Source: Acaryochloris marina MBIC11017
GTDB taxonomy: Bacteria; Cyanobacteriota; Cyanobacteriia; Thermosynechococcales; Thermosynechococcaceae
Reading direction: 5' to 3'
Assembly: GCF_000018105.1 (NCBI RefSeq)
Contig: NC_009927.1
Coordinates: 120,001-152,000, forward strand
DNA: 32,000 bases
Shown: piece after piece, positions 10,830 through 25,237 of the stretch
Layout of the letters: each line of letters opens with the position of its first letter
Position numbering within the stretch: position 1 is the first letter of the stretch
Position numbers and translations under genes: made by a program
The notes under the pieces: model-generated
Told to the model about the DNA's origin: nothing
Database searches by the model: none
What the model saw: the letters and a program-made list of their open reading frames with translations, nothing else

Positions 10830-12974
10830 TCACTCAGCAGGTTTGGGTAGGAACATGCGCTGCTTGATGGAATCCCATTGCTGAGCAGAGATTCCACTCG
10901 CTTGTTTACTGCAATCGATCATGAGCTGGCAGGTTGAGAAGTAGTTGGTGATGGCTTGCACATCATCTGTAGACAGATCCAATAATTCTGGAGAGATATC
11001 CAGTGATGAGCTGATTCCTTCGATTGAAACTGTTGATGAGTCAAATGATTTTTCTAGATATGAGATGAGGGTTTGAATATCAACATCTGTTATTAGTTTA
11101 TTATCCAGGGCAAATTTAGCGATGGCGATGGCGATGGCGCGGGCGCGGGCGCGGGCGCGGGCGATGGCGCTGGCGCGGGCGCTGGCGCGGGCGCTGGCGC
11201 GGTCGATGGCGCGGTCGAGGTCGAGGTCGAGGGCGCTGGCGCGGTCGAGGGCGCTGGCGATGGCGAGGGCGCGGGCGCTGGCGCGGTCGAGGGCGCGGGC
11301 GAGGTCGAGGGCGCGGGCGCTGGCGCGGTCGAGGTCGAGGGCGCGGTCGAGGGCGCGGTCGATGGCGCTGGCGATGGCGAGGACGAGGATTAGTATTAGA
11401 GTAAATACTCGTTTAACTTCACCAGAATAGTCACTGGATGCATGAGTTGTCTTAGCCCCTGCCCAAGCTAGCAATCTCTTTAACTTGGGATGTTCAGATA
11501 GCTCTTGAGTTTGTACTTCCAGTTTTTCCAAGAGTCCGATCGCAGCTTCACCCATCAACCCCGTAACTAGAAAAAAGACTTCTCTCCAGCGTTCACTTGA
11601 ACGGTGCAATTCAACTAGATCATCTAGTAGGTTCCATTTAACAATGTACTTTGCAGTTAAAAACTCCTGAAGCGTTAAGTGAGAGAAAGAATAAACATTA
11701 GTTGCTCTCTCAACGAAAATTCCTTGCTGAACTTCAATTGCTTCCAAGACTGCTGATGCATCAAGGTTCTTTGGAGCACCCAGCGAATCACCCAAAAAAT
11801 CAGCTATTGATTTCATCAACTGCTCTTCAGTGAAAAATAGTTGATTGTCCTCAAATCCCTGATAGGCAATTTTTGCCAACAATTGTTTCTCAAGGTCTGT
11901 GTGGAATCCCTCATAAATTTGACCTCGCCCAACCCGTTTTTCTGATGCCCACTCTTTTAGCAAAATGTTCAAGGCATCTTCATACAAAGTATGTCGGCTA
12001 CTGGGAACCGTTAGGGATTTGTTATAGACCATGCACAGAAACGTCAAGAGCAAAGGAGATTGAGCTAACTCCTTTGCTCCTTTATTCTCTGGTTTCTGCA
12101 ACAGTTCCCAACAGTGCTGAGCTGTCTGGCTCTGTTGGTCGAGTTCAGATGAGAACCAGTTTGTAATAAATTTCTCTATCTGCTCATCGTCAAATTCTGC
12201 GATCGCAACTGTAGTTACCCGCTTGAAATAGGTATGATAGGCGGCAATTCGACAAGAGGCTATAAACCGATTCTTGGAATATCGATCTACAAAGGCTTGA
12301 ATCTTCTGAATAACATTATCAAGATTTTCAGCAAGAACCTCATCCAGGCCGTCAAAGAGGATAAGGAGTCGCCCTTTTGCCAAAGCTTTTTTAGTAAAGC
12401 CATCTGGGTGTGGAAAGCCACAGTTTTCAAATTCAGCAGCGATACAGGTTTCCAGATCTAGATCGGGTGAGGTTAATAACTTTAATTCGAGGAAGACTGG
12501 AATTTGTTGATGCTTGTAGCTTCCTTGCTCTCCCTTAAGCGCTTCTAGTCCTACTTTCCTTAGAAAGGTAGACTTGCCAATTCCTGGATCTCCGAGAACA
12601 ATCAGCCGCTCACATTCGTTAGCAATATCAATACCGTTTCGCTTGGGACAGTTATGGTGTCTGAATCGACGGTCGCCCCGATTTCGATAGGCTTCTTCCA
12701 GGGCTTCACGAGAGTCATAACTTTTCATTGACTCCGTATCCAACATTCGGGCACCAGAATATATGGCATCTAACGATACGGGTTTAGACATTCCCAAAAC
12801 CTGGACTTGCCCATGTCGATCGCTGTAGTTTTGAAAGTATGCTTTTGTAGCATTAAAAAACAGTTGTCGAAATGAATCATCAATCTTGATCTCATCCCTC
12901 TCATCAAAGATTTTGATACCAAGGTCAAAGAGTGCCTTTATGAACGCTCCTGCAACTGCTGCCTCCAATGCCAC
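10830..12974 (-). CDS. NACHT-family STAND NTPase with a C-terminal dipeptide-repeat region
   Basis: Walker A LGDPGIGKSTFL, Walker B LLILFDGLDEV, and the typical pre-P-loop segment VQVLGMSKPVSLDAIY. GTG start at 12974. No recognisable effector domain at either end. Confidence 0.85.
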   Translation of the reverse strand: MALEAAVAGAFIKALFDLGIKIFDERDEIKIDDSFRQLFFNATKAYFQNYSDRHGQVQVLGMSKPVSLDAIYSGARMLDTESMKSYDSREALEEAYRNRGDRRFRHHNCPKRNGIDIANECERLIVLGDPGIGKSTFLRKVGLEALKGEQGSYKHQQIPVFLELKLLTSPDLDLETCIAAEFENCGFPHPDGFTKKALAKGRLLILFDGLDEVLAENLDNVIQKIQAFVDRYSKNRFIASCRIAAYHTYFKRVTTVAIAEFDDEQIEKFITNWFSSELDQQSQTAQHCWELLQKPENKGAKELAQSPLLLTFLCMVYNKSLTVPSSRHTLYEDALNILLKEWASEKRVGRGQIYEGFHTDLEKQLLAKIAYQGFEDNQLFFTEEQLMKSIADFLGDSLGAPKNLDASAVLEAIEVQQGIFVERATNVYSFSHLTLQEFLTAKYIVKWNLLDDLVELHRSSERWREVFFLVTGLMGEAAIGLLEKLEVQTQELSEHPKLKRLLAWAGAKTTHASSDYSGEVKRVFTLILILVLAIASAIDRALDRALDLDRASARALDLARALDRASARALAIASALDRASALDLDLDRAIDRASARASARASAIARARARARAIAIAIAKFALDNKLITDVDIQTLISYLEKSFDSSTVSIEGISSSLDISPELLDLSTDDVQAITNYFSTCQLMIDCSKQASGISAQQWDSIKQRMFLPKPAE
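11119..11388. repeat. 45 tandem hexanucleotide units, (G/T)CG(C/A)(G/T)G on the + strand, inside the NACHT ORF
   Basis: 270 nt of GCGCGG/GCGCTG/GCGATG/TCGAGG/GCGAGG units, far more GC-rich than the flanks. On the coding strand they give [A/D]-[R/L/S/I] dipeptides (ALDRALDRALDLDRASARALDLARALDRASARA...ARARARAIAIAIA). Confidence 0.95.
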
Positions 12975-13232: not shown

Positions 13233-15197
13233 ATGGCTATCCCTGAAGTAAATCTCATCGTACTGGCAGACCAGGCCGCCACCCCCATCGATGCTGCCCG
13301 GTCCCGGACCCAACCCGCAACAACCCCACTGGCCGATCTCCGGTGGATGCGAGTCGAAGAATTCCTAAGATCCCGCGAAATCCGACCCAACACCCACAAA
13401 GCCTATGAGCGAGACTTGAAGCAGCTCATGGACTGGACCCCAAAGGGATGGCATGAGATTACCTCCAGGGACTTGGATCGATACAAGACCTATCTCAAGA
13501 CTGAACCCAACCACCGGGGCAAGCTCCGCAAGTGTGCGACCATTAACCGGAGCTTGGCCGCATTGCAGAGCTTCTTCAAATGGCTGACGGTTCGGGACTA
13601 CATCACCAAAAACCCAGCTTTACTCTTAGAAAAGCTGAAGTCTGATCCATTGCTGCCCCAGGAATTCAGCCAGGACGAAGTGGATAATCTATATCAGGCC
13701 ATTTGCGATCGCGGGTTTCATTCCTTCCGAGATCGGGCATTGCTGCACCTGATTGATCATGGGTTGAGAGCATCAGAGATTCAGGGGTTGAATGTTGGGG
13801 ACTATGATGGTCAGCGTGTTCACATCAGAGAAGCCAAGGCTGATAGCGTTGGGTCTGTTCCACTTTTGAGCAAGGCCAGGAGAGCGTTTGACCAGTACAA
13901 GCAGTGGCGAGAACAACAGGGTGAAGTCCTTGAAGATGAGTCACCGTTGTTTGTATCCCACTCCAATAACAGCAAAGGACAACGGTTGCAATATTGGGGC
14001 ATCTACAAGATATTCAAGGCGATTGCTGATATTGCCGAGGTGGAGAATGCCCATCCTCACCGAGGACGGCATACCCTAGCGACTCGACTAGTGATGAAAG
14101 ACATGGACTCGATTCTGGCCCGGAAGGTTACCCGGCACAAATCAGAGCAGTCTTTTGTCCGTTATTCAGATCGGGGAATTGAGCTGAAGGCAGAGCAGCA
14201 ATTCTATGAGGTGCATGGGGAAGCGCCAGGGGGCGAGGATGGGATCGTTGAAGACCAGTTGGAAGGTATTGAGCTGAAGGCGGTCGTTGAGGAGCCTGCG
14301 AACTGGCCCAAGATTAAGGCGGTGGGTCTGCCCTTGAATACGGTCCAGGTGAGGCTGACCCTTGAGGTTTCAGGGAAGAAGAAGGGCAAGGTCAGGAAGG
14401 AGATCGAGGAGCGGGTCTTTAGTCCTTTTCAGATGGTCAAACCTAAGCCGAGGGGGAATGAGTATGAGCTGATGGTTGTGGTTGAGGGAGGCGATACGTT
14501 GTCTGCAATTACCGATCAGATGAAATGGGATATGGAGCTACTGGGGGAACTGGATGATTGCGAGGTGAAAGTGGCGTGGTTGGATCAGCAAGAATCGACT
14601 GGAGAGGTGACTCTAGAATCTCAGGAAGACGAGTCAGCTTTTGCCGAGTCTTCCGCAGGGCAACGGCCTACTTCCACCTCCAGCGTCTATCAAATGAAGA
14701 TCATGCTGCTGGGAGTACGGCCCCAAGTCTGGCGGCGCATTCAAGTCCCAGAGACGACGACGCTGGCCCAACTACATTCTGTATTGCAAGTCGTGATGGG
14801 GTGGGAAGGTTACCATCTGCACCAGTTCTCGGATAGCGAAGACGAAGCCATGACTTTAGCGGAGCTGATCGAAGATGATTTATTCTCATTCGGCTACCTA
14901 TATGACTTCGGGGATATGTGGCGACATGAAATCAAGGTGGAGAAGAGGTTAGAGAGTAAACCTGGAAAAAACTATCCCATTTGTCTGGCTGGAAAGCGGG
15001 CCTGTCCACCGGAAGACTGTGGTGGTGATTGGGGGTATGCTCGTCTGCTGAGGGTACTGAATAACCCCAGACATCCTGAGCATGAGGAGCGGTTGGAATG
15101 GGTTGGGAGTGATTTTGACCCGAAGGCGTTTGACCTGGAGGAGGTGAATCAAGCCTTGAAGGAGCTTGAGGTTGAAACAATGAGCTATTTTGATTGA
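13233..15197 (+). CDS. tyrosine recombinase (phage-integrase family) fused to a C-terminal pRiA4b ORF-3-like (MM3350-like) domain
   Basis: N-terminal SAM-like domain (NTHKAYERDLKQL). Catalytic residues are present: GLRASE (Arg), HPHRGRHTLAT (HxxR) and FVRYSD (Tyr). After an acidic linker comes VYQMKIMLLGVRPQVWRRIQVPETTTLAQLHSVLQVVMGWEGYHLHQF...YLYDFGDMWRHEIKVEK...CPPEDCGG, which I recognise as PF07929-type. Confidence 0.85.
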   Translation: MAIPEVNLIVLADQAATPIDAARSRTQPATTPLADLRWMRVEEFLRSREIRPNTHKAYERDLKQLMDWTPKGWHEITSRDLDRYKTYLKTEPNHRGKLRKCATINRSLAALQSFFKWLTVRDYITKNPALLLEKLKSDPLLPQEFSQDEVDNLYQAICDRGFHSFRDRALLHLIDHGLRASEIQGLNVGDYDGQRVHIREAKADSVGSVPLLSKARRAFDQYKQWREQQGEVLEDESPLFVSHSNNSKGQRLQYWGIYKIFKAIADIAEVENAHPHRGRHTLATRLVMKDMDSILARKVTRHKSEQSFVRYSDRGIELKAEQQFYEVHGEAPGGEDGIVEDQLEGIELKAVVEEPANWPKIKAVGLPLNTVQVRLTLEVSGKKKGKVRKEIEERVFSPFQMVKPKPRGNEYELMVVVEGGDTLSAITDQMKWDMELLGELDDCEVKVAWLDQQESTGEVTLESQEDESAFAESSAGQRPTSTSSVYQMKIMLLGVRPQVWRRIQVPETTTLAQLHSVLQVVMGWEGYHLHQFSDSEDEAMTLAELIEDDLFSFGYLYDFGDMWRHEIKVEKRLESKPGKNYPICLAGKRACPPEDCGGDWGYARLLRVLNNPRHPEHEERLEWVGSDFDPKAFDLEEVNQALKELEVETMSYFD

Positions 15198-15385
15198 GAA
15201 GGATCTTTACCCACTTGCTGACAGTCGGCTAAATAATCATCAATGACGTTATGAAAAGATTGCTTTAACTCATCCGCCGTCTGACCATCAAATGCAATGA
15301 CATCGCGAATCCCCAAGACGCGACCAAAGAAGATCTGATCATTAGCATCGAACTCAACCACAGATTCATAGCCCTTGTACTTCAT
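15185..15385 (-). pseudogene. HicB-family antitoxin, N-terminal domain only (C-terminal DNA-binding part missing)
   Basis: MKYKGYESVVEFDANDQIFFGRVLGIRDVIAFDGQTADELKQSFHNVIDDYLADCQQVGKDP matches the HicB N-domain. The expected ...YSGKF..RIP..LH RHH segment is absent. The ORF runs into the integrase 3' end with a 13-nt convergent overlap. Confidence 0.65.
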
Positions 15386-15718
15386 CTAACCCCCAGATAC
15401 CAATTTGCTACTAGCTAGGCGGTTGAGGCTAATCCCTTGTTCTGCTGCTTGGATAGCCAGTTGACGATGCTGCTCAGGTGGAATTCTCACCATAAATTTC
15501 CCACTGTATTGCTTTTTAGACAGAGGGGTAGGGATAGGCTCATCCTGTGCCACTAAATCCTCAATACAATCTTTGACCAATTCCACAATGCCAGCGAAAG
15601 CAGACTGTTGATCTTCATCCAGCCAGCTCAAACTTGGAAATTCGGCGCACAAGCCCACAAACTCCTCATCTTCTTGAGACCAGATGACCCGGTAGGTATA
15701 GTATTTGGCATCCATCAC
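15386..15718 (-). CDS. hicB: HicB-family antitoxin (N-domain plus RHH-like C-terminus)
   Basis: YTYRVIWSQEDEEFVGLCAEFPSLSWLDED...KKQYSGKFMVRIPPEQHRQLAIQAAEQGISLN. ATG 15713-15715 shares one base with the hicA TGA (15715-15717). The ORF-track start is the GTG one codon upstream. Confidence 0.85.
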   Translation of the reverse strand: MMDAKYYTYRVIWSQEDEEFVGLCAEFPSLSWLDEDQQSAFAGIVELVKDCIEDLVAQDEPIPTPLSKKQYSGKFMVRIPPEQHRQLAIQAAEQGISLNRLASSKLVSGG

Positions 15719-15960
15719 ATTGACTCCAGCTTTTGGATCGCGGCTAACACTTGTTTGACTTGGTAGGGTTTGCCCATCCCTTTCTTGGATTGGATATTGA
15801 CGAAAGGATCACCCTGCCAGGGAGTCTTGTAAACCCGATGGCTTCCAGAAGTCTGACGAGCTTCCCCGAAGTAGTGATCGCAAACCTTACACAAATCAGA
15901 GAACTTAATCCCAGCGGGATTATTCCCCATTTTGGCAACAATTTTGTCGATACTGGCCAT
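15715..15960 (-). CDS. hicA: HicA-family mRNA-interferase toxin
   Basis: 81 aa from the internal ATG 15960: MASIDKIVAKMGNNPAGIKFSDLCKVCDHYFGEARQTSGSHRVYKTPWQGDPFVNIQ..GKPYQVKQVLAAI (YcfA/HicA-like). The ORF-track extension up to 16227 looks non-coding. Confidence 0.8.
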   Translation of the reverse strand: MASIDKIVAKMGNNPAGIKFSDLCKVCDHYFGEARQTSGSHRVYKTPWQGDPFVNIQSKKGMGKPYQVKQVLAAIQKLESM

Positions 15961-15970
15961 GTGGTTAATA

Positions 15971-15992
15971 GTATCAATATCGATACTAGTAT
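15971..15992. promoter_or_regulatory. overlapping palindromes upstream of hicA (candidate TA operator)
   Basis: GTATCaATATcGATAC (imperfect 16-mer, 15971-15986) overlaps the perfect 10-mer ATACTAGTAT (15983-15992), 11-32 nt upstream of the hicA ATG. Confidence 0.25.
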
Positions 15993-16086
15993 AGAATACT
16001 CTTCGATATAAGACCAAACTGTTCGTTAGAGTTTCACTAGAGTCATAATGACTTGCTAAAATCCACGAATTTGCGTATATGGATAC

Positions 16087-16110
16087 GGAAATTGCCATTA
16101 TCGCAACCAA
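16087..16110 (+). repeat. copy A of a 24-nt dispersed direct motif (candidate recombination site)
   Basis: GGAAATTGCCATTATCGCAACCAA matches 23314-23337 at 20/24 positions in the same orientation. Confidence 0.7.
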
Positions 16111-16406
16111 ATCGAGAAATGAAGAATGAACGAAATACCTTTGGTTTGAATTTGGCCTGAAATCTTTGTGGGATTGTTCTTGAAATCGTTCATCTAAAAA
16201 CATAAAAACAGATGAAGGGTAGGGCAACAGTCTTTGGTCAACCCAAATGAATGATTAAGTACCCAGCAGTTATACAACAGCCTAAAAATATTGCGGAATA
16301 AGTAGAAATACTACTTTCCAAGGTTATCCATGCCATTATTTTATGCAAGGTGATTTTGGATTTAGCTTCAGCGCATTTAGAGGATTGGGGACTGTGATAA
16401 AAACTG

Positions 16407-17735
16407 TTGGAATGGATAGGTTTTATGGCACCAGATTTACGCCAATTCTTTCGCGCTTGCAATCCGGGTAAAACAATTCGCTTTGAAGACCCTGAAGAAC
16501 GAAACTATTACATCGACTTTTCATCGGTCCGAGGGGGAGAAGTCATTGAAGAACTGGGCCAAACCATTGCACTCATGGATCCAGATCCGACCTGCCAGCT
16601 TTTCTCGGGGCATATTGGCTGTGGTAAGTCCACTGAACTTCTGCGACTAAAAAAAGAGCTACAAGAAAAAGGCTTCCATGTCGTCTATTTCGAGTCCAGT
16701 GCAGATCTGGATATGGGTGATGTGGATGTGAGTGATATCTTGCTAGCCATTGCCCATCAAGTCAGTGAAAGCCTAGAAGCTGCCAAAATTTCCACTCAAT
16801 CGAGTTACTTTAATCGGCTGCTCAAGGAATGTGTGGATTTTTTAAATACCCCTGTGGAGTTGGGGATTGAAGCAGAACTGTCCTTGGGGATTGGCAAATT
16901 AACCGCAAAAACCAAAGAAAGCCCACAATTACGGAGCCAACTGCGCCAATATCTAGAACCTCGGACAGAAAGTTTGCTGAATGCTATTAACCGAGAACTG
17001 CTGCAACCTGCCCAGGAGGAGCTGAATAAGCAGGGGAAGCAGGGCTTAGTGGTGATTATCGACAATCTGGATCGGGTGGATAATCGACCGATAGCTTCGG
17101 GGCAAACCCAGGCGGAGTACTTATTTATCACTCGGGGAGAGCAGTTAGGGGGGTTACGATGCCATGTCGTCTATACCATTCCTCTGGTATTGATGTTCTC
17201 CAATGAGTTGCAAGCTCTGAAAAATCGGCTAGGCGGTGGGGCTAATCCGATGGTGTTGCCGATGGTTCCCATTCGATTGCGGGAGGGGAATGATTGTGAG
17301 GCGGGAATGGCTCTGTTGCGTCAAATGGTTTTAGCTCGGGCTTTTCCCCAGGCCACACCAGATGAACGTTTAGCTTCGGTGACAGAGGTGTTTGACTCAC
17401 CGGAGACATTAAATCAACTCTGTGTGGCGAGTGGTGGACATGTTCGTAATTTGCTGAGTCTGCTATTTACCTGTTTAAGAAAACGCAAGAGCTTGCCCAT
17501 TACCCAAGACAGTTTGCAGTTAGCGATTCAAGAAGCTAAGGATGATTTGACCGCTACTATCGATGCTGAAGAGTGGGAACTGCTCAAACAGGTCCATTCC
17601 TCGAAGAAAGTCACGGGAGAAGAGGAATGTCAGGCATTATTGCGGAGTCTATTTGTATTTGAATATCGCAACCATGCCGATGGTCGATGGTTTGATATTA
17701 ATCCAGTATTGGCAGGTGCTCGTGAATTGTCATGA
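16407..17735 (+). CDS. P-loop ATPase (AAA+/ORC-Cdc6-like or STAND-like, no repeat domain)
   Basis: Walker A GHIGCGKST (16608-16634) and Walker B LVVIIDNLDR (~17046-17075). The second ATG at 16425 (MAPDLRQFF...) may be the true start. The stop overlaps the next start as ATGA at 17732-17735. Confidence 0.8.
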   Translation: MEWIGFMAPDLRQFFRACNPGKTIRFEDPEERNYYIDFSSVRGGEVIEELGQTIALMDPDPTCQLFSGHIGCGKSTELLRLKKELQEKGFHVVYFESSADLDMGDVDVSDILLAIAHQVSESLEAAKISTQSSYFNRLLKECVDFLNTPVELGIEAELSLGIGKLTAKTKESPQLRSQLRQYLEPRTESLLNAINRELLQPAQEELNKQGKQGLVVIIDNLDRVDNRPIASGQTQAEYLFITRGEQLGGLRCHVVYTIPLVLMFSNELQALKNRLGGGANPMVLPMVPIRLREGNDCEAGMALLRQMVLARAFPQATPDERLASVTEVFDSPETLNQLCVASGGHVRNLLSLLFTCLRKRKSLPITQDSLQLAIQEAKDDLTATIDAEEWELLKQVHSSKKVTGEEECQALLRSLFVFEYRNHADGRWFDINPVLAGARELS

Positions 17736-20700
17736 CGGAGACTTCATTTACCGTAGGGACTGAGCATCTGGCTCAATTGGAAGAATTGGCCTGGACCATT
17801 GAGATGTCTGAGGGGCAGTTTACGCTGATTTTAGCGAACTGCAATTATGCTCAACTGCGAACGGCTTTAATCCAACGCTTGGCTGAGCTATGTTCTGTAG
17901 CGATCAAGCCTGTGCATTTGAATCCAGATGCAGTGACCTTGTACTCAGCTATCCAGCAGCAGCTTGGACAACAGGTTCCCCCGGCTTTGATGGTGACGGG
18001 GTTAGAATCGCTAGAAGCCTTAGAACAAGTTTTGACATCTGCGAATCAAGCCCGAGAGGAATTTCGCAAACGCCTACCCGTCCCGATGGTGCTGTGGCTG
18101 GATGATGATTTGCTGAAGCAGATGGTGCGTTTAGTTCCTGATCTAAAAAGTTGGGGGACTTCCTTTCGGTTTCAAGCTGAGCCTGTGGAATTGGTGCAGT
18201 TTCTACAAGACTGTAGCCAGCGCTTGTTTACAAAAATTCTCGATGTAGGGCAGTTTGTACCTAATTCTGAGGTATTGGGTAAACGGAATCGGCAAGAAAT
18301 TAGCTATGCAATACAAGCCTTAGAAACACCCGGGACCACTCTTAACCCAAAATTGCAAGCTACTGTGATCTTTGCTCAGGGCCGGAATGCCTATGCCAAG
18401 GGTGATTTGAAAAAGGCGCTTGATTTCTATCAGCATAGTTTGCAGGAGTGGCCGGATTCAGAACAACCCTCTGGAGGAATGCCTGCTAGGACAAACGATG
18501 AGTCTGGAAGTACCTCTGAAATAGAAAACTCACGACATAAGGGAATTGTACTGATTCATCAGGGCTGGTGTTATCAGGCAATGGCTCAACAGGATTCATC
18601 CCAAACAGCAGCATTTCTGGAACAAGCTAAGCAGTCCTTTGAGCAAGGATTGGATTGTTTAGGGGCATCGTCGGAGCTGGGGATTCTGTATCTGGGGCAA
18701 CTAGGAGAGGTTCTGCATCAGTTAGAGAATTGGGATGCGTTAGATCAACTGGCCTTAAACCTATATCAGAACACCACACCTGAAAAGCACCCTCTGCAAT
18801 ATATGGAAGCGTTGGTGTTGCGGGCACAGGTTTGCAACCATCGTCAAACCTGGGAGCCAGCTCTTGATTTGACCGAAGAAGCACTACAGATTTGGGAGGT
18901 GGGAAGTACTGAGATACAGGTGCTGGCCCAGCAGCAAATCTTGCGAATGCGTATGGGCCTACTCAGTGCCCAAGCTCAGCAAGCTCTGGGAAAGTCTCAA
19001 GCAGCTATTGACGATTTAGAGCAGACTATAGCTGCCACTGATGCAAGTGCAGATCCACATTTGTTTGTGGAGATTTTGGAGCAGCTAAGGCAGCTTTATT
19101 TTGATCAGAAAGACTATCAGAAAGCTTTTGAGACTAAGCAACTGAAAACGACGGTCAAACTCAAATTTCGATTACAGGCGTTTATTGGGGCGGGACAGTT
19201 GCAACCCCAGCTTGGGGACGAGGAAGGGATTGATGAATCCTTGGTGTTGTCGGGACGACAGCAAGATATTGAAGTGATTGTGAATGAACGGCTGAGCCAG
19301 GATCAATACAAGCTGGTGATATTGTATGGTCCTTCTGGCGTGGGCAAGAGTTCATTAGTCAAAGCAGGGCTGGTTCCAGTTTTGCAGCAGCGCGTGATTA
19401 GAGATCGGAAAACTTTGCCTGTGGTGGTGAATGTTTATAGCAATTGGGTTGCGGAGCTACAAGCAAAGCTAGAACAGGCTGCTTCTGTGCCACACACTAT
19501 GAAAACTGAGATTTCAGGTGTGGAGACCTCTGAAGATGTGAGCCAAGCATCCGATGTTGTCAAAGGTGAAACGGGCACTAGTGACAGCTTAGAGCAGATT
19601 AAGCAGCAACTTAAACACAATGTAGAGGCTCAACGATTAACTGTACTTGTTTTTGACCAGTTTGAGGAGTTCTTTTTTAACTGCCAAGAGCCTGGTTTAA
19701 GACGCCGATTCTATGAGTTTTTACAGGCTTGTTTGGACGGCAGAGCCATTCCCTTTGTGAAAGTGGTTTTATCGTTGCGGGAAGATTACTTTCACTATTT
19801 ACTTGAGTTTGGGCGGTTCACGACTAGACATGGGCTAGAGCAGGATGTACTCCGGCAAGATAATCGCTATTATTTGGGGAATTTTGATTTAGATTCAGCG
19901 CGGTTGGTCACAGAACGGCTGGCGAAACGAGCGCAATTTCATGTGCAATCGCAGGTGATTGAGCGGCTGATTGGTGATTTAGCGACGGAATTGGATCAGG
20001 TGCGTCCGATTGAATTGCAGGTGTCCGGCGCGCAACTTCAGACAGAAAATATTACAACCTTGCAGCAGTATGAACATCTTGGTGAGCAGCCCAAAAAGGT
20101 ATTAGCTAGTCGCTGGCTGGAACAGGTAGTAGAAGACTGTGGACCAGAGAACAACGAGACTGCTTGGAAGATGTTGGTTTCTTTGACTGATAGCAAGGGA
20201 ACACGACCGCTTCGAACTGAGCAAGAACTGTGGAATGCTGTCAGTACTTTTGCCTTGTTGGATACTGAAGATTCTAATCTTCAAGATTTACCTCAATCTA
20301 ACCCTGAAGATCTGACGCATTTTTCCTTGATTTTGAGAATATTGCAGGGATCTGGGTTAATTGTTCATTGGCCCCAAGAGCAAGATGATCGCTTTCAACT
20401 GGTTCATGATTATTTGGTTGAACCGATTCGACAACACTTTGACACTGACTTAGAGCAAAAACTTCGTAGTGAACGACAAGCTCGACAAAAAGCAGAAGCA
20501 GGGCGTGCAAAGCTCTTGAAGATCTCATTAGGCGGAGCTTTTATTGCCATTGCGGGTTTAATCGGTCTTTTATGGAGAGCAGAAAATTTGCGGTATAGAG
20601 CTGAGCGTCGAGAAGCTAACGCTGAAGTTTTAGCTCTAAGTCTTTCAAGTAAAAATTTGTTCGACTCCAACTATCAACTGAAATCCCTAACAAAAGCATT

Positions 20701-23224
20701 AATGGCTGGTCAAAATTTACGTGACTATGAAGAAAAACAAGAGAATCGACTAGAGAATCATATGTATGGTGTCGCAACACTTCGTGATTCCGTCTATAAC
20801 ATTCGACAGCAAAATAACCTCGAAGGCCATACCGATGCGGTCCTAGCCTTGGCCTATAGCCCGGATGGGAGCACCCTGGCCACGGCGAGTTCTGACAAGA
20901 CAGTGAAATTGTGGTCGAAGGAGGGGAGCCTGATCACTACCCTCGAAGGCCATACCGATTTGGTCCTAGCCTTGGCCTATAGCCCGGATGGGAGCACCCT
21001 GGCCACGGCGAGTTATGACAAGACAGTGAAATTGTGGTCGAAGGAGGGGAGCCTGATCACTACCCTCGAAGGCCATACCGATGCGGTCCTAGCCTTGGCC
21101 TATAGCCCGGATGGGAGCACCCTGGCCACGGCGAGTTCTGACAATACGGTGAAATTGTGGTCGAAGGAGGGGAGCCTGATCACTACCCTCGAAGGCCATA
21201 CCGATGCGGTCCTAGCCTTGGCCTATAGCCCGGATGGGAGCACCCTGGCCACGGCGAGTTCTGACAATACGGTGAAATTGTGGTCGAAGGAGGGGAGCCT
21301 GATCACTACCCTCGAAGGCCATACCGATTTGGTCCTAGCCTTGGCCTATAGCCCGGATGGGAGCACCCTGGCCACGGCGAGTTCTGACAATACGGTGAAA
21401 TTGTGGTCGAAGGAGGGGAGCCTGATCACCACCCTCGAAGGCCATACCGCTGCGGTCGGGGACTTGGCCTATAGCCCGGATGGGAGCACCCTGGCCACGG
21501 CGAGTGATGACAAGACAGTGAAATTGTGGTCGAAGGAGGGGAGCCTGATCACCACCCTCGAAGGCCATACCGCTGCGGTCGGGGACTTGGCCTATAGCCC
21601 GGATGGGAGCACCCTGGCCACGGCGAGTAGGGACAATACGGTGAAATTGTGGTCGAAGGAGGGGAGCCTGATCACCACCCTCGAAGGCCATACCGATTTG
21701 GTCCTAGCCTTGGCCTATAGCCCGGATGGGAGCACCCTGGCCACGGCGAGTTATGACAAGACGGTGAAATTGCGGTCGAAGGAGGGGAGCCTGATCACCA
21801 CCCTCGAAGGCCATACCGCTGCGGTCCTAGCCTTGGCCTATAGCCCGGATGGGAGCACCCTGGCCACGGCGAGTTCTGACAATACGGTGAAATTGTGGTC
21901 GAAGGAGGGGAGCCTGATCACCACCCTCGAAGGCCATACCGATTTGGTCAACACCTTGGCCTATAGCCCGGATGGGAGCACCCTGGCCACGGCGAGTAGG
22001 GACAATACGGTGAAATTGTGGTCGAAGGAGGGGAGCCTGATCACCACCCTCGAAGGCCATACCGATGCGATCTGGGCCTTGGCCTATAGCCCGGATGGGA
22101 GCACCCTGGCCACGGCGAGTGATGACAATACGGTGAAATTGTGGTCGAAGGAGGGGAGCCTGATCACCACCCTCGAAGGCCATACCGATGCGGTCGGGGA
22201 CTTGGCCTATAGCCCGGATGGGAGCACCCTGGCCACGGCGAGTTCTGACAATACGGTGAAATTGTGGTCGAAGGAGGGGAGCCTGATCACCACCCTCGAA
22301 GGCCATACCTATGCGATCTGGGACTTGGCCTATAGCCCGGATGGGAGCACCCTGGCCACGGCGAGTAGGGACAATACGGTGAAATTGTGGTCGAAGGAGG
22401 GGAGCCTAATCACCACCCTCGAAGGCCATACCGATGTGATCTGGGCCTTGGCCTATAGCCTGGATGGGAGCACCCTGGCCACGGCGAGTAGGGACAAGAC
22501 GGTGAAATTGTGGAACTTTGAGCTTGAAGATCTACTAAAGCGAGGCTGTCAATGGTTATCCGGCTATTTTATTCGACACCCACAGGAATTAGAATTACTA
22601 ACGGTTTGTCACAGTCCTGCGATTCTGAGTTTGGCTGCACTAGGCTTGGTCAGGCAAGGTCAAGTTCTTGCAGAAGCTGGAAATATGGAAAAAGCTCGAC
22701 AGAAGCTCCAAACTGCACTTAAATGGAGTCCCAAATTGGATCTTGATCCAGAAACTGAAATGAAAGATCGGGATGCTAAAAAGTTAGTGATTAAATGGGC
22801 TGCCCCTGCCAAAGCTGAAAAGGCTAAACAATTAGCTAGGCAAGGAAAAGTGAGTGACTCCATCCTCATTTTTCGAGAATTGCAGAGTTGGCAAGATACT
22901 GATAAGGCAGTAGAAATCTCAGCATCGTCTTGGAATTCACTTTGTTGGTTTGGGAGTTTGCATAGAAAAGCAAAATCGGTAATGTTTGCTTGTGAGAAAG
23001 CTGTCGCTTTTGACCCCAGTCATGGGGGGAGGCGCGATAGTAGAGGTTTAGCTAGAGCCTTAACCAATAACCCAAAAGGGGCAATAGAAGATTTTGAAGC
23101 GTATATCAAATTGTCTAATAGAGCTAGCGATCGTAAAAAGCAAAGGCAAAGTTGGATCGATGCCTTGAAAGCAGGGAAAGATCCTTTTACTGATGAAGTG
23201 CTGGATAGTCTCTTTGATGAATAA
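17732..23224 (+). CDS. 1830-aa multidomain STAND NTPase: degenerate P-loop-like N-module, TPR, nSTAND1-like NTPase, one TM helix, 14 WD40 repeats, TPR-like C-terminus
   Basis: N-module FTLILANCNYAQL / ALMVTGLES / VPMVLWLDDD has no Walker A. TPR-like AQGRNAYAKGDLKKALDFYQ. Walker A ILYGPSGVGKSSLVKAG (~19328), Walker B LTVLVFDQFEEFF (~19649). Hydrophobic helix ISLGGAFIAIAGLIGLLW (20522-20575). 14 x LEGHT....LAYSPDGSTLATAS.D.TVKLWSKEGSLITT. Confidence 0.9.
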   Translation: MTETSFTVGTEHLAQLEELAWTIEMSEGQFTLILANCNYAQLRTALIQRLAELCSVAIKPVHLNPDAVTLYSAIQQQLGQQVPPALMVTGLESLEALEQVLTSANQAREEFRKRLPVPMVLWLDDDLLKQMVRLVPDLKSWGTSFRFQAEPVELVQFLQDCSQRLFTKILDVGQFVPNSEVLGKRNRQEISYAIQALETPGTTLNPKLQATVIFAQGRNAYAKGDLKKALDFYQHSLQEWPDSEQPSGGMPARTNDESGSTSEIENSRHKGIVLIHQGWCYQAMAQQDSSQTAAFLEQAKQSFEQGLDCLGASSELGILYLGQLGEVLHQLENWDALDQLALNLYQNTTPEKHPLQYMEALVLRAQVCNHRQTWEPALDLTEEALQIWEVGSTEIQVLAQQQILRMRMGLLSAQAQQALGKSQAAIDDLEQTIAATDASADPHLFVEILEQLRQLYFDQKDYQKAFETKQLKTTVKLKFRLQAFIGAGQLQPQLGDEEGIDESLVLSGRQQDIEVIVNERLSQDQYKLVILYGPSGVGKSSLVKAGLVPVLQQRVIRDRKTLPVVVNVYSNWVAELQAKLEQAASVPHTMKTEISGVETSEDVSQASDVVKGETGTSDSLEQIKQQLKHNVEAQRLTVLVFDQFEEFFFNCQEPGLRRRFYEFLQACLDGRAIPFVKVVLSLREDYFHYLLEFGRFTTRHGLEQDVLRQDNRYYLGNFDLDSARLVTERLAKRAQFHVQSQVIERLIGDLATELDQVRPIELQVSGAQLQTENITTLQQYEHLGEQPKKVLASRWLEQVVEDCGPENNETAWKMLVSLTDSKGTRPLRTEQELWNAVSTFALLDTEDSNLQDLPQSNPEDLTHFSLILRILQGSGLIVHWPQEQDDRFQLVHDYLVEPIRQHFDTDLEQKLRSERQARQKAEAGRAKLLKISLGGAFIAIAGLIGLLWRAENLRYRAERREANAEVLALSLSSKNLFDSNYQLKSLTKALMAGQNLRDYEEKQENRLENHMYGVATLRDSVYNIRQQNNLEGHTDAVLALAYSPDGSTLATASSDKTVKLWSKEGSLITTLEGHTDLVLALAYSPDGSTLATASYDKTVKLWSKEGSLITTLEGHTDAVLALAYSPDGSTLATASSDNTVKLWSKEGSLITTLEGHTDAVLALAYSPDGSTLATASSDNTVKLWSKEGSLITTLEGHTDLVLALAYSPDGSTLATASSDNTVKLWSKEGSLITTLEGHTAAVGDLAYSPDGSTLATASDDKTVKLWSKEGSLITTLEGHTAAVGDLAYSPDGSTLATASRDNTVKLWSKEGSLITTLEGHTDLVLALAYSPDGSTLATASYDKTVKLRSKEGSLITTLEGHTAAVLALAYSPDGSTLATASSDNTVKLWSKEGSLITTLEGHTDLVNTLAYSPDGSTLATASRDNTVKLWSKEGSLITTLEGHTDAIWALAYSPDGSTLATASDDNTVKLWSKEGSLITTLEGHTDAVGDLAYSPDGSTLATASSDNTVKLWSKEGSLITTLEGHTYAIWDLAYSPDGSTLATASRDNTVKLWSKEGSLITTLEGHTDVIWALAYSLDGSTLATASRDKTVKLWNFELEDLLKRGCQWLSGYFIRHPQELELLTVCHSPAILSLAALGLVRQGQVLAEAGNMEKARQKLQTALKWSPKLDLDPETEMKDRDAKKLVIKWAAPAKAEKAKQLARQGKVSDSILIFRELQSWQDTDKAVEISASSWNSLCWFGSLHRKAKSVMFACEKAVAFDPSHGGRRDSRGLARALTNNPKGAIEDFEAYIKLSNRASDRKKQRQSWIDALKAGKDPFTDEVLDSLFDE
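20819..22513 (+). repeat. tandem array of 14 x 123-bp (41-codon) WD40-coding units
   Basis: Exact 123-nt period (units start at 20819, 20942, ...). A 42-nt block TTGGCCTATAGCCCGGATGGGAGCACCCTGGCCACGGCGAGT is identical in 13 of 14 units. Differences cluster at codons 6-10 and 25/27 of the unit. Confidence 0.95.
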
Positions 23225-23278
23225 TACCCTCACCACCCTTAGCAGACAAGAATCTATAGAACTAGTCTGACTGCTTTG

Positions 23279-23337
23279 TCTGAAAGGAATTCAGGGTGTG
23301 TATGATTGGTTCAGGAAACCGCCATTATCGTAACCAG
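23279..23337 (+). repeat. copy B of the dispersed direct motif (24-nt core 23314-23337 plus ~35 nt of weaker upstream similarity)
   Basis: The core GGAAACCGCCATTATCGTAACCAG matches copy C at 23/24. Upstream, CTGAAAGG..TTCA... aligns to 24196-24230 at roughly 65-70% identity without gaps. Confidence 0.8.
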
Positions 23338-23383: not shown

Positions 23384-23423
23384 AGTAGGACTATAGTAAC
23401 CTTTATGTTACTATAGTCCTACT
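23384..23423. promoter_or_regulatory. perfect 17-bp inverted repeat abutting the killer-gene start (candidate operator and promoter)
   Basis: AGTAGGACTATAGTAAC (23384-23400), a 6-nt spacer, then GTTACTATAGTCCTACT (23407-23423), with ATG at 23424. Each arm contains TATAGT. The right-arm copy ends 6 nt before the ATG. Confidence 0.5.
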
Positions 23424-23792
23424 ATGAAACTGCAAGAGTACATCAAAGAGGATGGCTCCAGTCCTTACCAAAAGTGGTTTAACCGATTAGATGCTATAGC
23501 AGCAGCAAAGGTTACGGTTGCCGTTTCTCGTCTGGAATTAGGCAACACCTCAAATGTGAAGTGGTTCGATGGAATTGGTGAATACCGGATCAATTGGGGG
23601 CCAGGATACCGTATCTATCTGATCCAAGATGGCAAGGAGTTGATTGTTTTATTGGGAGGAGGAACGAAAAAGGATCAACAGTCGGATATCACCAAGGCTA
23701 AGGAGCTTTCTCAAGAATATAAAAATCGGAAGAAGCAAGCGAATATAGATCCTCAAAAGAAGAAACAACGGCGAAAGAGAAAAAAGAAGTAA
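23424..23792 (+). CDS. addiction-module killer protein (RelE/ParE-superfamily toxin) with a Lys/Arg-rich tail
   Basis: YIKEDGSSPYQKWFNRLD...AAAKVTVAVSRLELGN.SNVKWFDGIGEYRINWGPGYRIYL.QDG.ELIVLLGGGTKK.Q..DI..AK fits the killer-protein family pattern. The C-terminal KNRKKQ...KKKQRRKRKKK extension is unusual. Confidence 0.8.
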   Translation: MKLQEYIKEDGSSPYQKWFNRLDAIAAAKVTVAVSRLELGNTSNVKWFDGIGEYRINWGPGYRIYLIQDGKELIVLLGGGTKKDQQSDITKAKELSQEYKNRKKQANIDPQKKKQRRKRKKK

Positions 23793-23797
23793 ATATC

Positions 23798-24121
23798 ATG
23801 GCATTGACGAGAGATTTCAAAGAGACTATCCACTCCCGAGTGCAGTCGGACCCTGAGTTTGCAACTGCCTTATTGGATGAAGCTGCATACCTCATGCTTA
23901 ATGGAGAGCCAGAAACAGCTCGATTAATATTGCGGGATTTAGTCAATGCGACGGTTGGCTTTGAACAACTTGCTGTCGAAGCGAATAAGCCCAGTAAGAG
24001 TCTTCATCGGATGCTATCTGCTAAAGGAAACCCAACGATGGATAGTTTGAACGCAATCTTTACTGCACTGCGTAAGAGGCTGAATGTGGATATTCAAGTT
24101 CATGCAGTTTCTTCTTCTTGA
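23798..24121 (+). CDS. addiction-module antidote protein (HTH antitoxin)
   Basis: Starts 5 nt after the toxin stop. Contains LLDEAAYLMLNGEPETARLILRDLVNATVGFEQLA...KSLHRMLS.KGNPTMDSL..IF.AL, as in the antidote proteins paired with killer proteins. Confidence 0.8.
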   Translation: MALTRDFKETIHSRVQSDPEFATALLDEAAYLMLNGEPETARLILRDLVNATVGFEQLAVEANKPSKSLHRMLSAKGNPTMDSLNAIFTALRKRLNVDIQVHAVSSS

Positions 24122-24195
24122 TGGATTCAGAACTGGAACTGAAGTGAGGGTTTCAGAAGACTGAAAATACAATATTAATTGGCTAAATCGCTTTA

Positions 24196-24254
24196 CCTGA
24201 AAGGGCTTCAAGACTTGTAAGCTTAGGGAAGGAAACAGCCATTATCGTAACCAG
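24196..24254 (+). repeat. copy C of the dispersed direct motif (core 24231-24254)
   Basis: GGAAACAGCCATTATCGTAACCAG. It ends 8 nt upstream of the recombinase ATG at 24263. Confidence 0.8.
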
Positions 24255-24262
24255 AAACCGAT

Positions 24263-25237
24263 ATGGAACTCGACGCAATACCCACCCCTCCAGCTTCGGC
24301 CCTAAAAATTCTTGAAAACGATGTTCTGAGTGATTTGCTCAGGGATAAACGATCTCCCAGCACCCGACGAGCCTACCGCAAAGACCTGACTGATTTTTTC
24401 CGCAAGATGTTTGCTGAAGATCCCACCCCTGAAATGGTGGGTCTATTCCTGGGGATGGATCGGCATGAGGCGCTGCAGCTAGTCGCCAGGTACAAGGGCA
24501 TTTTAATTGAGCTGGAGTTGGCCGAGGCCACGGTAAATCGGAGACTATCGGCCCTGAGAAGCTTGGTATCCTATGCCCGTCGAGCGGGTCAGTGCACCTG
24601 GGGCCTGGAGGATATTAAAGGTGAAAAAGTGATTGCCTATCGGGATACTTCAGGGGTGGATCTGGAGGATTTTCAGAAGATGTTGGCGATTCCAGATCGA
24701 GAAACGCAGCTAGGGAAGCGGGATTATGCGATTCTGGCCTTGCTCTGGGAAACAGCCTTGCGGCGAGGGGAGCTGAATCGTTGTAATGTCGGGGACTGGG
24801 AACCCGAGGAAAAAGCGCTGTGGATTCAGGGGAAGGGTCGAGGCACACAGAAAGAACGGGTGACGGTTGGTAACGTGAGTGCGATCGCACTGGAGGATTG
24901 GCTATCAACTCGGAAGCACTTGGAGGATGATGACCCGCTGATTGTGGCCCTGGATATCGTGCATTGGGGGCAGCGATTATCCACGACATCTATTTATAAG
25001 GTGGTCAGGAACATAGCCACGAAAGCGGGTATCAGCAAGGTGATGTCCCCACACCGGGTTAGGCATTCCTCGATCACTGCGGCACTAGATGCCACGGGTG
25101 GAAATGTCCGGGCCGTGCAGCAGCTCTCTCGCCATGCCAAGCCAGAAACAGTGATGCGCTATGACGATAATCGGAAGGATCTTCAGGGAGAGGTGACGGG
25201 GGTTTTATCTCGGTTATTGGGAGAGGCAGAGGATTGA
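24263..25237 (+). CDS. tyrosine site-specific recombinase (XerC/D-like integrase family)
   Basis: N-terminal SAM-like STRRAYRKDLTDFF. Catalytic LWETALRRGEL (Arg), HRVRHSSIT (HxxR) and SRHAKPETVMRYD (His, Tyr). Confidence 0.9.
   Translation: MELDAIPTPPASALKILENDVLSDLLRDKRSPSTRRAYRKDLTDFFRKMFAEDPTPEMVGLFLGMDRHEALQLVARYKGILIELELAEATVNRRLSALRSLVSYARRAGQCTWGLEDIKGEKVIAYRDTSGVDLEDFQKMLAIPDRETQLGKRDYAILALLWETALRRGELNRCNVGDWEPEEKALWIQGKGRGTQKERVTVGNVSAIALEDWLSTRKHLEDDDPLIVALDIVHWGQRLSTTSIYKVVRNIATKAGISKVMSPHRVRHSSITAALDATGGNVRAVQQLSRHAKPETVMRYDDNRKDLQGEVTGVLSRLLGEAED

Follow-up and report, generated by a model that had tools for sequence, protein, structure and literature searches.

The gene pair of plasmid pREB2

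The window analyzed here, a 32,000-nucleotide stretch of the 356,087-bp contig of plasmid pREB2 from Acaryochloris marina MBIC11017, carries two adjoining genes on the forward (+) strand, the products of which are an ATPase and a giant protein of the STAND/NLR type. The first open reading frame, ORF1 (16425..17735), is 100% identical to ABW31910.1 and encodes a 436-residue AAA+ ATPase; by sequence it is KAP/NACHT-like, and its predicted three-domain fold resembles that of Cdc6/Orc1 or CED-4. The second, ORF2 (17732..23224), is ABW31911.1, an NLR-like protein of 1830 amino acids (aa). In an earlier note, written from the DNA letters without database searches, the pair had been described as translationally coupled and as a candidate conflict system lacking a recognizable effector. 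Both of its reading frames (16407-17735 and 17732-23224, +) are indeed present, but the start of ORF1 is most likely the ATG at 16425 and not the TTG at 16407, because the public annotation uses this ATG and 24 homologs align from it; the product is thus 436 and not 442 residues long. The stop of ORF1 and the start of ORF2 share an ATGA overlap at 17732..17735, as had been read in the sequence, and the sister strain MBIC10699 is annotated with the same overlap. While this agrees with translational coupling in the A. marina pair, the overlap is specific to some lineages and not general to the family: among the 79 homologous loci described below, most have an intergenic spacer of -3 to about 950 nucleotides (nt), and in two it is larger. 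Promoter and terminator scans returned fewer sites than shuffled controls and were hence uninformative.

All motifs quoted in the note were recovered, namely GHIGCGKST (aa 62-70) and LVVIIDNLD (aa 208-216) in ORF1, and FTLILANCNY (aa 30-39), GPSGVGKSS (aa 533-541) and VFDQFEE (aa 640-646) in ORF2. Its count of three NTPase-type modules, i.e., the separate ORF1, a degenerate N-terminal domain in ORF2 and an intact nSTAND1 domain in ORF2, agrees with our domain analysis, and searches of Pfam, NCBIfam and PADLOC revealed no nuclease, protease, TIR or pore domain in either protein.

ORF1, the partner ATPase

In Pfam searches, ORF1 scored above the cut-offs of KAP_NTPase, AAA_22 and NPHP3_N, although its P-loop family matches, which also included AAA_16 and ATPase_2, were all just above or near their cut-offs. 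The match to KAP (PF07693) reached 26.2 bits against a cut-off of 20 and covered only profile positions 19-168 of 293. The KAP NTPases are reportedly characterized, in work by Aravind and colleagues dating from 2004, by transmembrane helices inserted in the NTPase domain. Inserted membrane helices were not found in ORF1, where the highest 19-residue Kyte-Doolittle mean was 1.4 and fell on a core β-strand, and where the insert at aa 100-205 was polar and helical. For want of a hydrophobic insert, ORF1 was not filed as a classical KAP NTPase.

The AlphaFold2 model of ORF1, built with 24 homologs, had a predicted local distance difference test score (pLDDT) of 86 and a predicted template-modeling score (pTM) of 0.87. 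It comprises, from the N-terminus, an αβα nucleotide-binding domain, a helical lid and a C-terminal winged helix, and a long polar helical insert separates Walker A from Walker B. When compared with the Protein Data Bank (PDB) by Foldseek, the model matched Cdc6/Orc1, ORC4, CED-4, Apaf-1, RuvBL, RFC and the RADAR ATPase RdrA, with E values of 7e-7 to 1e-4 and template-modeling (TM) scores of about 0.35-0.43. Searching the PDB sequences with an ORF1 profile, on the other hand, yielded chance-level matches only. Overall, Walker A and B motifs, an αβα core, a helical lid and similarity to AAA+ folds together place ORF1 among the AAA+ ATPases.

The catalytic motifs were strictly conserved in the 24 homologs. 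In Walker A, GHIGCGKST (16608..16634), residues G62, H63, G65, G67, K68, S69 and T70 were invariant, as were D213, L215, D216 and R217 in and next to Walker B, LVVIIDNLD (17046..17072), which is of the DxLDR type that we take to be typical of KAP and NACHT NTPases. A third motif, SGGHVRNLL (17430..17456), lies in the lid and has S336, G337, G338, H339 and R341 invariant; its family form, SGGHxRNLL, may provide a sensor-2 arginine of the clamp-loader or Cdc6 type, a reading to which a weak dnaX_nterm match in the same region of a distant ORF1 homolog lends slight support.

Domain organization of ORF2

The N-domain of ORF2 (aa 1-175; 17732..18256) is predicted to form an AAA+-like α/β core without a Walker A motif. 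The N-terminal 200 residues had no Pfam match, and the N-domain had no NCBIfam match either. Its AlphaFold2 model, built with 22 sequences (pLDDT 86), contained a five-stranded β-α-β core, and the top Foldseek matches in the PDB were all AAA+ proteins (RFC, RuvB, ORC, Sir3, Rif2 and the E. coli-type Hda), the inactive AAA+ modules of Sir3 and Rif2 being among them. The loop after β1, which is the expected site of a P-loop, reads ANCNY in ORF2 and (R/N)CNY in the family, with RCNY as the consensus, and the Walker A pattern GxxxxGK[ST] was absent from the N-domain in 73 homologs. Besides CNY, the conserved motifs were GLE after β3, NQxR, P..LW..D and an arginine after β4. The suggestion that this module is a P-loop fold that has lost its Walker A thus finds tentative support, at the level of the fold only, since the sequence profiles show no such relationship: the N-domain profile produced chance-level matches only against PDB chain sequences, and it was unrelated to the ORF1 profile in hhalign, so that an origin of the N-domain as a decayed copy of ORF1 was rejected. 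In an exhaustive HMMER search the N-domain was found in 992 clusters at 50% identity; the proteins are 1,200-2,000 residues long, and the domain nearly always occupies their N-terminal end. We propose it as a docking module for ORF1.

Helical repeats of the TPR type follow at about aa 200-470 (18329..19141), with matches to TPR_12, TPR_2 and TPR_MalT; together with the matches at aa 1636-1802 these account for the TPR-like repeats that had been noticed in ORF2. The switch domain is an intact nSTAND1 NTPase (aa 507-833; 19250..20230), as had been recognized from its motifs: it matched PF20703 with an E value of 9.4e-33 and 114.8 bits, against a cut-off of 27.1, and it retains both Walker A (GPSGVGKSS, aa 533-541; 19328-19354) and Walker B (VLVFDQFEE, aa 638-646; 19643-19669).

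Beyond nSTAND1 there is one strongly hydrophobic helix, ISLGGAFIAIAGLIGLLW (aa 931-948; 20522..20575), with a Kyte-Doolittle value of 2.05, and it is the predicted single membrane span of the protein, in agreement with the single transmembrane helix of the note. The strongest hydrophobic 19-mer of ORF2 lies at aa 929-947 (Kyte-Doolittle 2.05), and 47 of 57 family members have a 19-mer of at least 1.6 at this position, some 350-480 residues past Walker A; it is the hydrophobicity of the helix that is conserved, and not its sequence. Two paralogs lack it, namely the 1580-aa paralog of locus L051 and that of L064. A positive-inside bias was observed around the helix, with 4.1 lysine plus arginine residues upstream against 2.8 downstream (37 distinct sequences, Wilcoxon p = 2e-4, uncorrected for phylogeny). 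CHASE2, moreover, occupies the same position as the WD40 sensor in some members. CHASE2 is an extracytoplasmic sensor domain. As helix position, charge bias and CHASE2 position agree, we favor a topology in which the N-terminal half would be cytoplasmic and the sensor extracytoplasmic.

The WD40 array and its turnover

The C-terminal part of ORF2 consists of 14 WD40 repeats (aa 1030-1603; 20818..22540) of 41 residues each, i.e., two propellers' worth, and of a TPR tail (about aa 1636-1802; 22637..23137) with TPR_2 and TPR_9 matches, just as the note had outlined. The array is highly homogenized: at the nucleotide level it has a period of 123 nt, 13.8 copies and 94% matches, and the units are exactly 41 aa long. 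If the degenerate last unit is set aside, the amino acids differ between units only at codons 6-10, 25 and 27, apart from two singletons. The codon differences at these positions span several nucleotides (codon 9, for example, is CTA, GGG, AAC or TGG), and synonymous variation occurs in three codon columns only. Judged from the GH and D landmarks of the repeat, the variable codons would correspond to surface, top-face hot spots of the blades. Variation at predicted interaction hot spots is also the pattern that was described for highly repetitive WD40 proteins by Hu et al. 2017 (PMC5587647). In unit 8 the signature tryptophan is replaced by arginine (W to R). It may be added that G+C content rises to 0.60 at 21001-22000, inside the array, compared with 0.42-0.55 elsewhere in the window. 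The TPR tail is clade-specific, with homologs in two partner proteins only (those of L005 and L010).

In the sister strain MBIC10699 the corresponding locus is carried by plasmid pREC1, which allowed the parts of the system to be compared. ORF1 of the two strains is 97.9% identical and residues 1-1029 of ORF2 are 89.8% identical, whereas the WD40 array of the sister strain has been rebuilt, with 15 units, several of them shortened, and with different residues at the hot spots; its TPR tail is present with a duplication (62% identity). Because the array has been rebuilt beside such well-conserved partners, turnover of the sensor is far faster than that of the rest of the A. marina system.

Strict pairing and variable C-terminal modules across the family

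One genome per species was scanned for relatives of ORF1, which gave at least 598 loci, and the best 79 of these, about 59-71% identical, were examined. All 79 were cyanobacterial or in cyanobacteria-like bins. A same-strand downstream reading frame with homologous N-domain, TPR and nSTAND1 regions was found in 76 of them, and in the remaining three the available DNA ends less than 700 nt downstream. Co-occurrence of the two genes, the absence of which had been set beforehand as grounds for refutation, is therefore the rule, the only exceptions being short of downstream sequence. Pairwise distances for the ATPase and for each part of ORF2 were correlated at r of about 0.9, which indicates that the two proteins co-diverge, with no swapping of partners; as the correlation is equally high for every part of ORF2, such a mirror-tree comparison does not allow the contact to be assigned to the N-domain in particular. 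The ATPase was the slowest to diverge: its mean p-distance was 0.30, while the parts of ORF2 had values of 0.45-0.54.

The order of N-domain, TPR and nSTAND1 was constant in all 145 representatives, while the C-terminus was variable. The C-terminal module was WD40 in 82 of the 145; other representatives carried CHASE2 (P0174 and P0248), TPR (P0201), NACHT plus NCH2 (P0190), a dynamin-like GTPase (P0283) or a complete phosphoenolpyruvate (PEP) carboxylase (P0288). The PEP carboxylase fusion (PF00311, E value 3e-294) was present in two independent assemblies (L089 6001-11799 and L090 2051-7849), and its partner ATPase gene overlaps upstream; McdB-like and ParA/McdA-like genes were observed downstream of it. 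A CHASE2 form on a 5.3-Mb chromosome (CP003620.1) likewise has the ATPase gene directly upstream.

A fusion protein of 687 residues, P0297, encoded in a metagenome-assembled genome (MAG) of the Xenococcaceae, joins an N-domain in frame to an ORF1-type ATPase with intact Walker motifs. Its N-domain is 90% identical to that of the giant-protein gene that follows, and its ATPase part shares 46% identity with ORF1 and 59% with the free ATPase encoded immediately before it, the locus (L088 487-8799) being a three-gene variant composed of free ATPase, fusion and giant protein. As Rosetta-stone evidence, this single case suggests that the N-domain and the ATPase work together. In three other loci (L016, L027 and L051) two giant-protein paralogs were seen around one ATPase gene, the order in Anabaena azotica (L051) being giant, ATPase, giant; one ATPase may serve two receptors there.

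Two kinds of locus

Forty-four of the 79 loci shared a common setting, in which the pair lies divergently beside ftsQ-ftsZ in the order ftsZ, ftsQ (opposite strand), ATPase and giant protein; the identity of ftsQ and ftsZ was confirmed by Pfam. This arrangement, shared by many filamentous species, spans the Nostocales, Oscillatoriales, Coleofasciculales and Leptolyngbyales even though the outer flanks differ between these orders, the median spacer between ftsQ and the ATPase gene is about 350 nt, and within this group the ATPase tree tracks taxonomy. Successive WD40 repeats in the ftsQ-linked proteins have identities of 0.27-0.5. The other loci are dispersed in variable contexts; they include the nearest relatives of the A. 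marina copy and a separate clade of Nostoc paralogs, and it is among them that the internal identity of WD40 repeats peaks, at up to 0.9. In the ATPase tree, the A. marina plasmid copy and the ftsQ-linked group fall into separate clades. In the clearest dispersed case (L056 against L074), the ATPases are 95% identical, the N-terminal halves 81% and the WD regions 59%, so that the sensor diverges faster than the rest; dispersed pairs do not all follow this pattern, as between L023 and L040 the corresponding values are 97%, 94% and 92%. The pair had been considered consistent with a self-contained accessory system. This view was not borne out, as the A. marina copy is one paralog of a large cyanobacterial family of which the largest group is chromosomal.

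In many Microcoleus loci (L047, L055, L058-L060, L065-L069 and L072-L080), genes whose N-terminal sequences look like those of dndC, dndD and dndE are located beyond ftsZ as seen from the pair, and the ATPase-giant spacer of these loci is long, about 680-960 nt.

Relation to known systems

STAND and NLR proteins embody an immune logic that is common to bacteria, fungi, plants and animals. To our knowledge, the characterized bacterial examples carry an obvious effector domain. The A. marina pair is STAND/NLR-like, and it is unusual in three respects: its constant partner is an ATPase and not an effector, its N-domain is AAA+-like but degenerate, and it has a conserved orthologous group beside a cell-division locus. 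No description of the ATPase/giant-protein pair was found in PADLOC, Pfam, NCBIfam or the literature searched. Against PADLOC-DB v2, ORF1 gave only a weak PDC-S20 match over the P-loop region (E value 9e-7) and no known defense family, and ORF2, with the Avs/NLR models included, gave only a WD40-driven match to HEAT-ARM_XIII and marginal P-loop matches.

The closest parallels are the nSTAND1 counter-invader systems (PMC7159879 and PMC8195603), which share with ORF2 a central nSTAND1, a variable C-terminal module and an occurrence in cyanobacteria of multicellular habit; KAP-type NTPases also occur in the same class of systems. Kaur et al. 2021 (PMC8195603) defined nSTAND1 in systems that are wired through EAD adaptors, and those systems link the NTPase to its effectors by EAD or Death-like adaptors at the N-terminus, matching copies of which sit on separate effector proteins, whereas ORF2 has an unassigned AAA+-like domain and TPR at its N-terminus and the ATPase as its only constant partner. 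No match to EAD, bDLD, TIR, caspase or peptidase was found in aa 1-500 of ORF2 or in the neighboring genes, nor was an effector gene. Avs and other bacterial NLR-like proteins share the tripartite layout of the pair, with the output at the N-terminus, a STAND switch in the middle and a sensor of repeats at the C-terminus, as well as a context resembling a defense island, but they are single genes with a nuclease, protease, TIR or other effector, and the A. marina pair has a second ATPase and a predicted membrane span.

Near-identical repeats with few variable positions, and changes of repeat number and order between strains, are shared with the fungal NWD/HET-E proteins and the repetitive WD40 proteins of PMC5587647. 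ORF2 differs from the fungal proteins, in which NACHT is the nucleotide-binding oligomerization domain (NOD), in its bacterial host, in nSTAND1 as its NOD (NACHT scored below its cut-off), in the predicted membrane span ahead of its propellers and in having an ATPase as a separate partner. The Apaf-1/CED-4 apoptosome resembles the pair in its WD40 double propeller behind a STAND NTPase and in the likeness of the ORF1 model to the CED-4/Apaf-1 NOD, but the A. marina pair has no CARD or caspase and consists of two NTPase polypeptides, not one. In mixed AAA+ assemblies (clamp loader δ', ORC, Sir3 and Rif2), a module without an ATP site likewise stands beside an active ATPase; the likeness to these is at the fold level only, with no sequence relationship and no evidence of a shared ring.

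An ORF1-like module was also met outside the family, in a Nostoc plasmid locus of VMAP-MoxR type (L087 4087-9260; Nostoc sp. C057 plasmid p057_J). This locus encodes VMAP (VMAP-M1 plus VMAP-C), MoxR and a 974-residue SAV_2336_NTERM protein, of which the C-terminal 420 residues form an ORF1-like NTPase with intact Walker motifs, 26% identical to ORF1 over its full length. VMAP-MoxR loci are treated as a type of conflict system by Kaur et al. 2020 (PMC7159879). Genes for MoxR, vWA and VMAP, which make up the VMAP-MoxR-vWA ternary systems, were not found around the A. marina pair. On an acidobacterial plasmid, a free ORF1 homolog is followed by a TPR protein.

A proposed mechanism and its alternatives

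The interpretation that we prefer, and that we believe about as strongly as we doubt, is that the pair forms a receptor of the NLR type, probably membrane-spanning, whose signal is relayed by the partner ATPase, the A. marina copy being likely related to conflict. ORF2 would then be both receptor and switch. Its C-terminal module, which in A. marina comprises the WD40 propellers and the TPR tail, would bind a ligand, probably outside the cytoplasm and past the single membrane span, and binding would free the cytoplasmic nSTAND1 for nucleotide exchange and oligomerization. Oligomerization would cluster the constant TPR array and the degenerate AAA+-like domain, and the latter might dock ORF1, which as an active AAA+ enzyme possesses both Walker motifs and, putatively, a sensor-2 arginine. 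Docking could nucleate or complete the assembly of ORF1, in the way that inactive subunits do in clamp loaders and ORC, and ORF1 would act as the output or gate of the system. The plasmid copy of A. marina, as a fast-diversifying paralog, may recognize phage, mobile elements or non-self.

For this copy a conflict role is the more likely one, because its context of toxin-antitoxin (TA), integrase and NACHT genes (detailed in the last section), its homogenized WD40 repeats, the turnover of the array and the swappable C-terminal modules of the family all fit such a role, as does the ORF1-like module in the SAV_2336_NTERM protein of a VMAP-MoxR locus. The candidacy as a conflict system that was raised in the note can therefore be retained for the A. 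marina copy as an inference, with the caveat that no known defense family was matched and that the sensor of the ftsQ-linked group is conserved. Several observations indeed speak against the preferred interpretation. The largest group of orthologs is chromosomal and syntenic with ftsQ-ftsZ, and in it the WD40 part is as conserved between genera as the NTPase (60-76% identity across the Nostocales). The conservation of ORF1, about 59-72% identity across cyanobacterial orders, is unusually high for a defense gene. Neither protein has a recognizable effector domain or matched a known defense family in the searches described, and the literature searched contained no experiment on any member of the family. 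As regards the individual steps, the AAA+ assignment of the N-domain has the predicted structure as its sole basis, with Foldseek E values of 4e-5 to 1e-3 and TM scores of 0.4-0.5, and the hhalign probability of a relation between the N-domain and ORF1 profiles was 0.2%; the fusion of the two is one protein from one MAG; and the topology of ORF2 was judged by hydrophobicity only, in a protein that has a second hydrophobic stretch at aa 1622-1640. The latter, considered as a candidate second membrane span, overlaps the first TPR helix of the tail and has an extra proline in the sister strain.

Conservation of the ftsQ-linked sensor is unlike that of an arms-race sensor and points to a stable, possibly endogenous ligand, so that a non-immune role is more likely for that group, and for this reason the family as a whole should not be labeled a defense system. 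A conserved cellular signaling module could accordingly be envisaged for the entire family, in which an endogenous envelope, septum or cell-cell cue would be relayed to division or envelope homeostasis, and of which the plasmid copy would be a redundant or neofunctionalized paralog. The persistence of the ftsQ-ftsZ linkage in 44 of 79 loci over four orders despite differing outer flanks, the median distance of about 350 nt to ftsQ, the equal conservation of WD40 and NTPase, an ATPase tree that follows taxonomy, and the housekeeping-level conservation of ORF1 all argue for such a module. As an account of the A. marina pair it nonetheless appears somewhat unlikely, since this copy is plasmid-borne between integrase genes and TA modules, falls in a different ATPase clade, and has a sensor array that turns over between strains; a set of swappable C-terminal modules, which includes even a whole PEP carboxylase, is also a poor fit to a single housekeeping role, and the ftsQ-ftsZ synteny may have been inherited without a functional link. 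A bolder proposal would unite the two kinds of locus in an undescribed class of cyanobacterial transmembrane NLR that would have no toxin as its read-out: the degenerate AAA+ domain would act as a "stator" that activates the partner ATPase, an ancestral copy retained at ftsQ-ftsZ in several, mostly filamentous orders would couple surveillance of envelope or infection to division, and the dispersed paralogs would serve immunity through varied sensors or through integrated baits such as PEP carboxylase; we regard it as speculative and unlikely.

Other alternatives concern the ligand, the division of labor between the two proteins and the integrity of the locus. ORF1 might be a chaperone or loader, comparable to MoxR partners, that keeps ORF2 inactive or assembles it, the effector being encoded elsewhere or residing in the membrane span of ORF2, which could form a pore or disrupt the membrane. 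ORF1 has no domain beyond its NOD-like NTPase module, most members have the single conserved hydrophobic helix, and NTPase chaperones are proposed as a thresholding mechanism by Kaur et al. 2020 (PMC7159879); but the helix is missing in the L051 and L064 paralogs, a pore is poorly explained by one helix from each protomer, and no third gene is conserved with the pair across the dispersed loci, which makes this quite an unlikely arrangement. The homogenized repeats with their few variable codons, a pattern like that of Hu et al. 2017 (PMC5587647), would also be expected of a self/non-self receptor for kin or allorecognition after the manner of fungal HET-E/NWD, in which a polymorphic WD40 sensor would read the polymorphic ligands of neighboring cells and trigger growth arrest or death. 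A probably extracytoplasmic sensor and the enrichment of filamentous or colonial cyanobacteria among the retrieved loci would suit this idea, yet the repeat signature is equally expected for the sensing of phage proteins, no polymorphic partner gene is evident at the locus, and Acaryochloris is unicellular; we deem it very unlikely. As for the plasmid copy being a decaying or non-functional duplicate, the W to R change in WD40 unit 8 and an accessory location that tolerates loss could be cited, but both reading frames are intact over 6.8 kb with all catalytic motifs present, and a second strain retains the locus with an ORF1 that is 98% identical, so that decay deserves hardly any credence.

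The receptor interpretation with ORF1 as its signaling partner would have wider implications. The chassis is widespread and has no obvious effector domain, with at least 598 loci and about 1,000 clusters of the N-domain at 50% identity, and it is always paired with one ATPase; if that ATPase is the output or gate, this would be a different way for an NLR to signal, and an extracytoplasmic sensor, if true, would be unusual for a STAND protein. The slow copy linked to ftsQ-ftsZ and the fast, module-swapping accessory copies also offer a natural contrast within one architecture, which makes it testable, in Nostoc or Anabaena strains that are amenable to genetics, whether immune NLRs originated from, or feed into, core cell biology.

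Genomic surroundings of the plasmid copy

The pair lies in accessory DNA. The genes preceding it are, in order, those for a NACHT protein, a tyrosine recombinase with PRiA4_ORF3 and HicA/HicB, and those following it encode RelE and its antidote, a second tyrosine recombinase, a pentapeptide-repeat protein, UmuD and a zeta toxin; the neighbors include an S24 peptidase gene. TA modules flank the pair as the note had stated: a HicA toxin gene with two HicB-family antitoxin genes (15185-16227, -) directly upstream of ORF1 and divergent from it, and a RelE/ParE toxin and antidote (23424-23792 and 23798-24121, +) downstream of ORF2. The NACHT plus NCH2 protein of 714 aa (10830-12974, -) is a second STAND gene product, encoded 3.4 kb upstream of the pair; it is without an obvious repeat sensor and is also found in the sister strain. 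The first recombinase (13233-15197, +) has a C-terminal PRiA4_ORF3 domain (E value 7e-60), and the second (24263-25237) is 26% identical to it; the two bracket the HicAB genes, the pair and the RelE cassette.

The RelE/ParE module looks like a cassette inserted beside an integrase gene, since strain MBIC10699 has the same locus without it. A 65-nt direct repeat (23273-23337 and 24190-24254; 77% identical, the last 24 nt nearly so in full, and 917 nt apart) brackets this toxin-antidote module, and its second copy stops 9 nt short of the recombinase gene at 24263. Directly upstream of the RelE-family gene there is a perfect 17-nt palindrome, the arms of which (23384-23400 and 23407-23423) are 6 nt apart, and which may be an operator or a recombination site.

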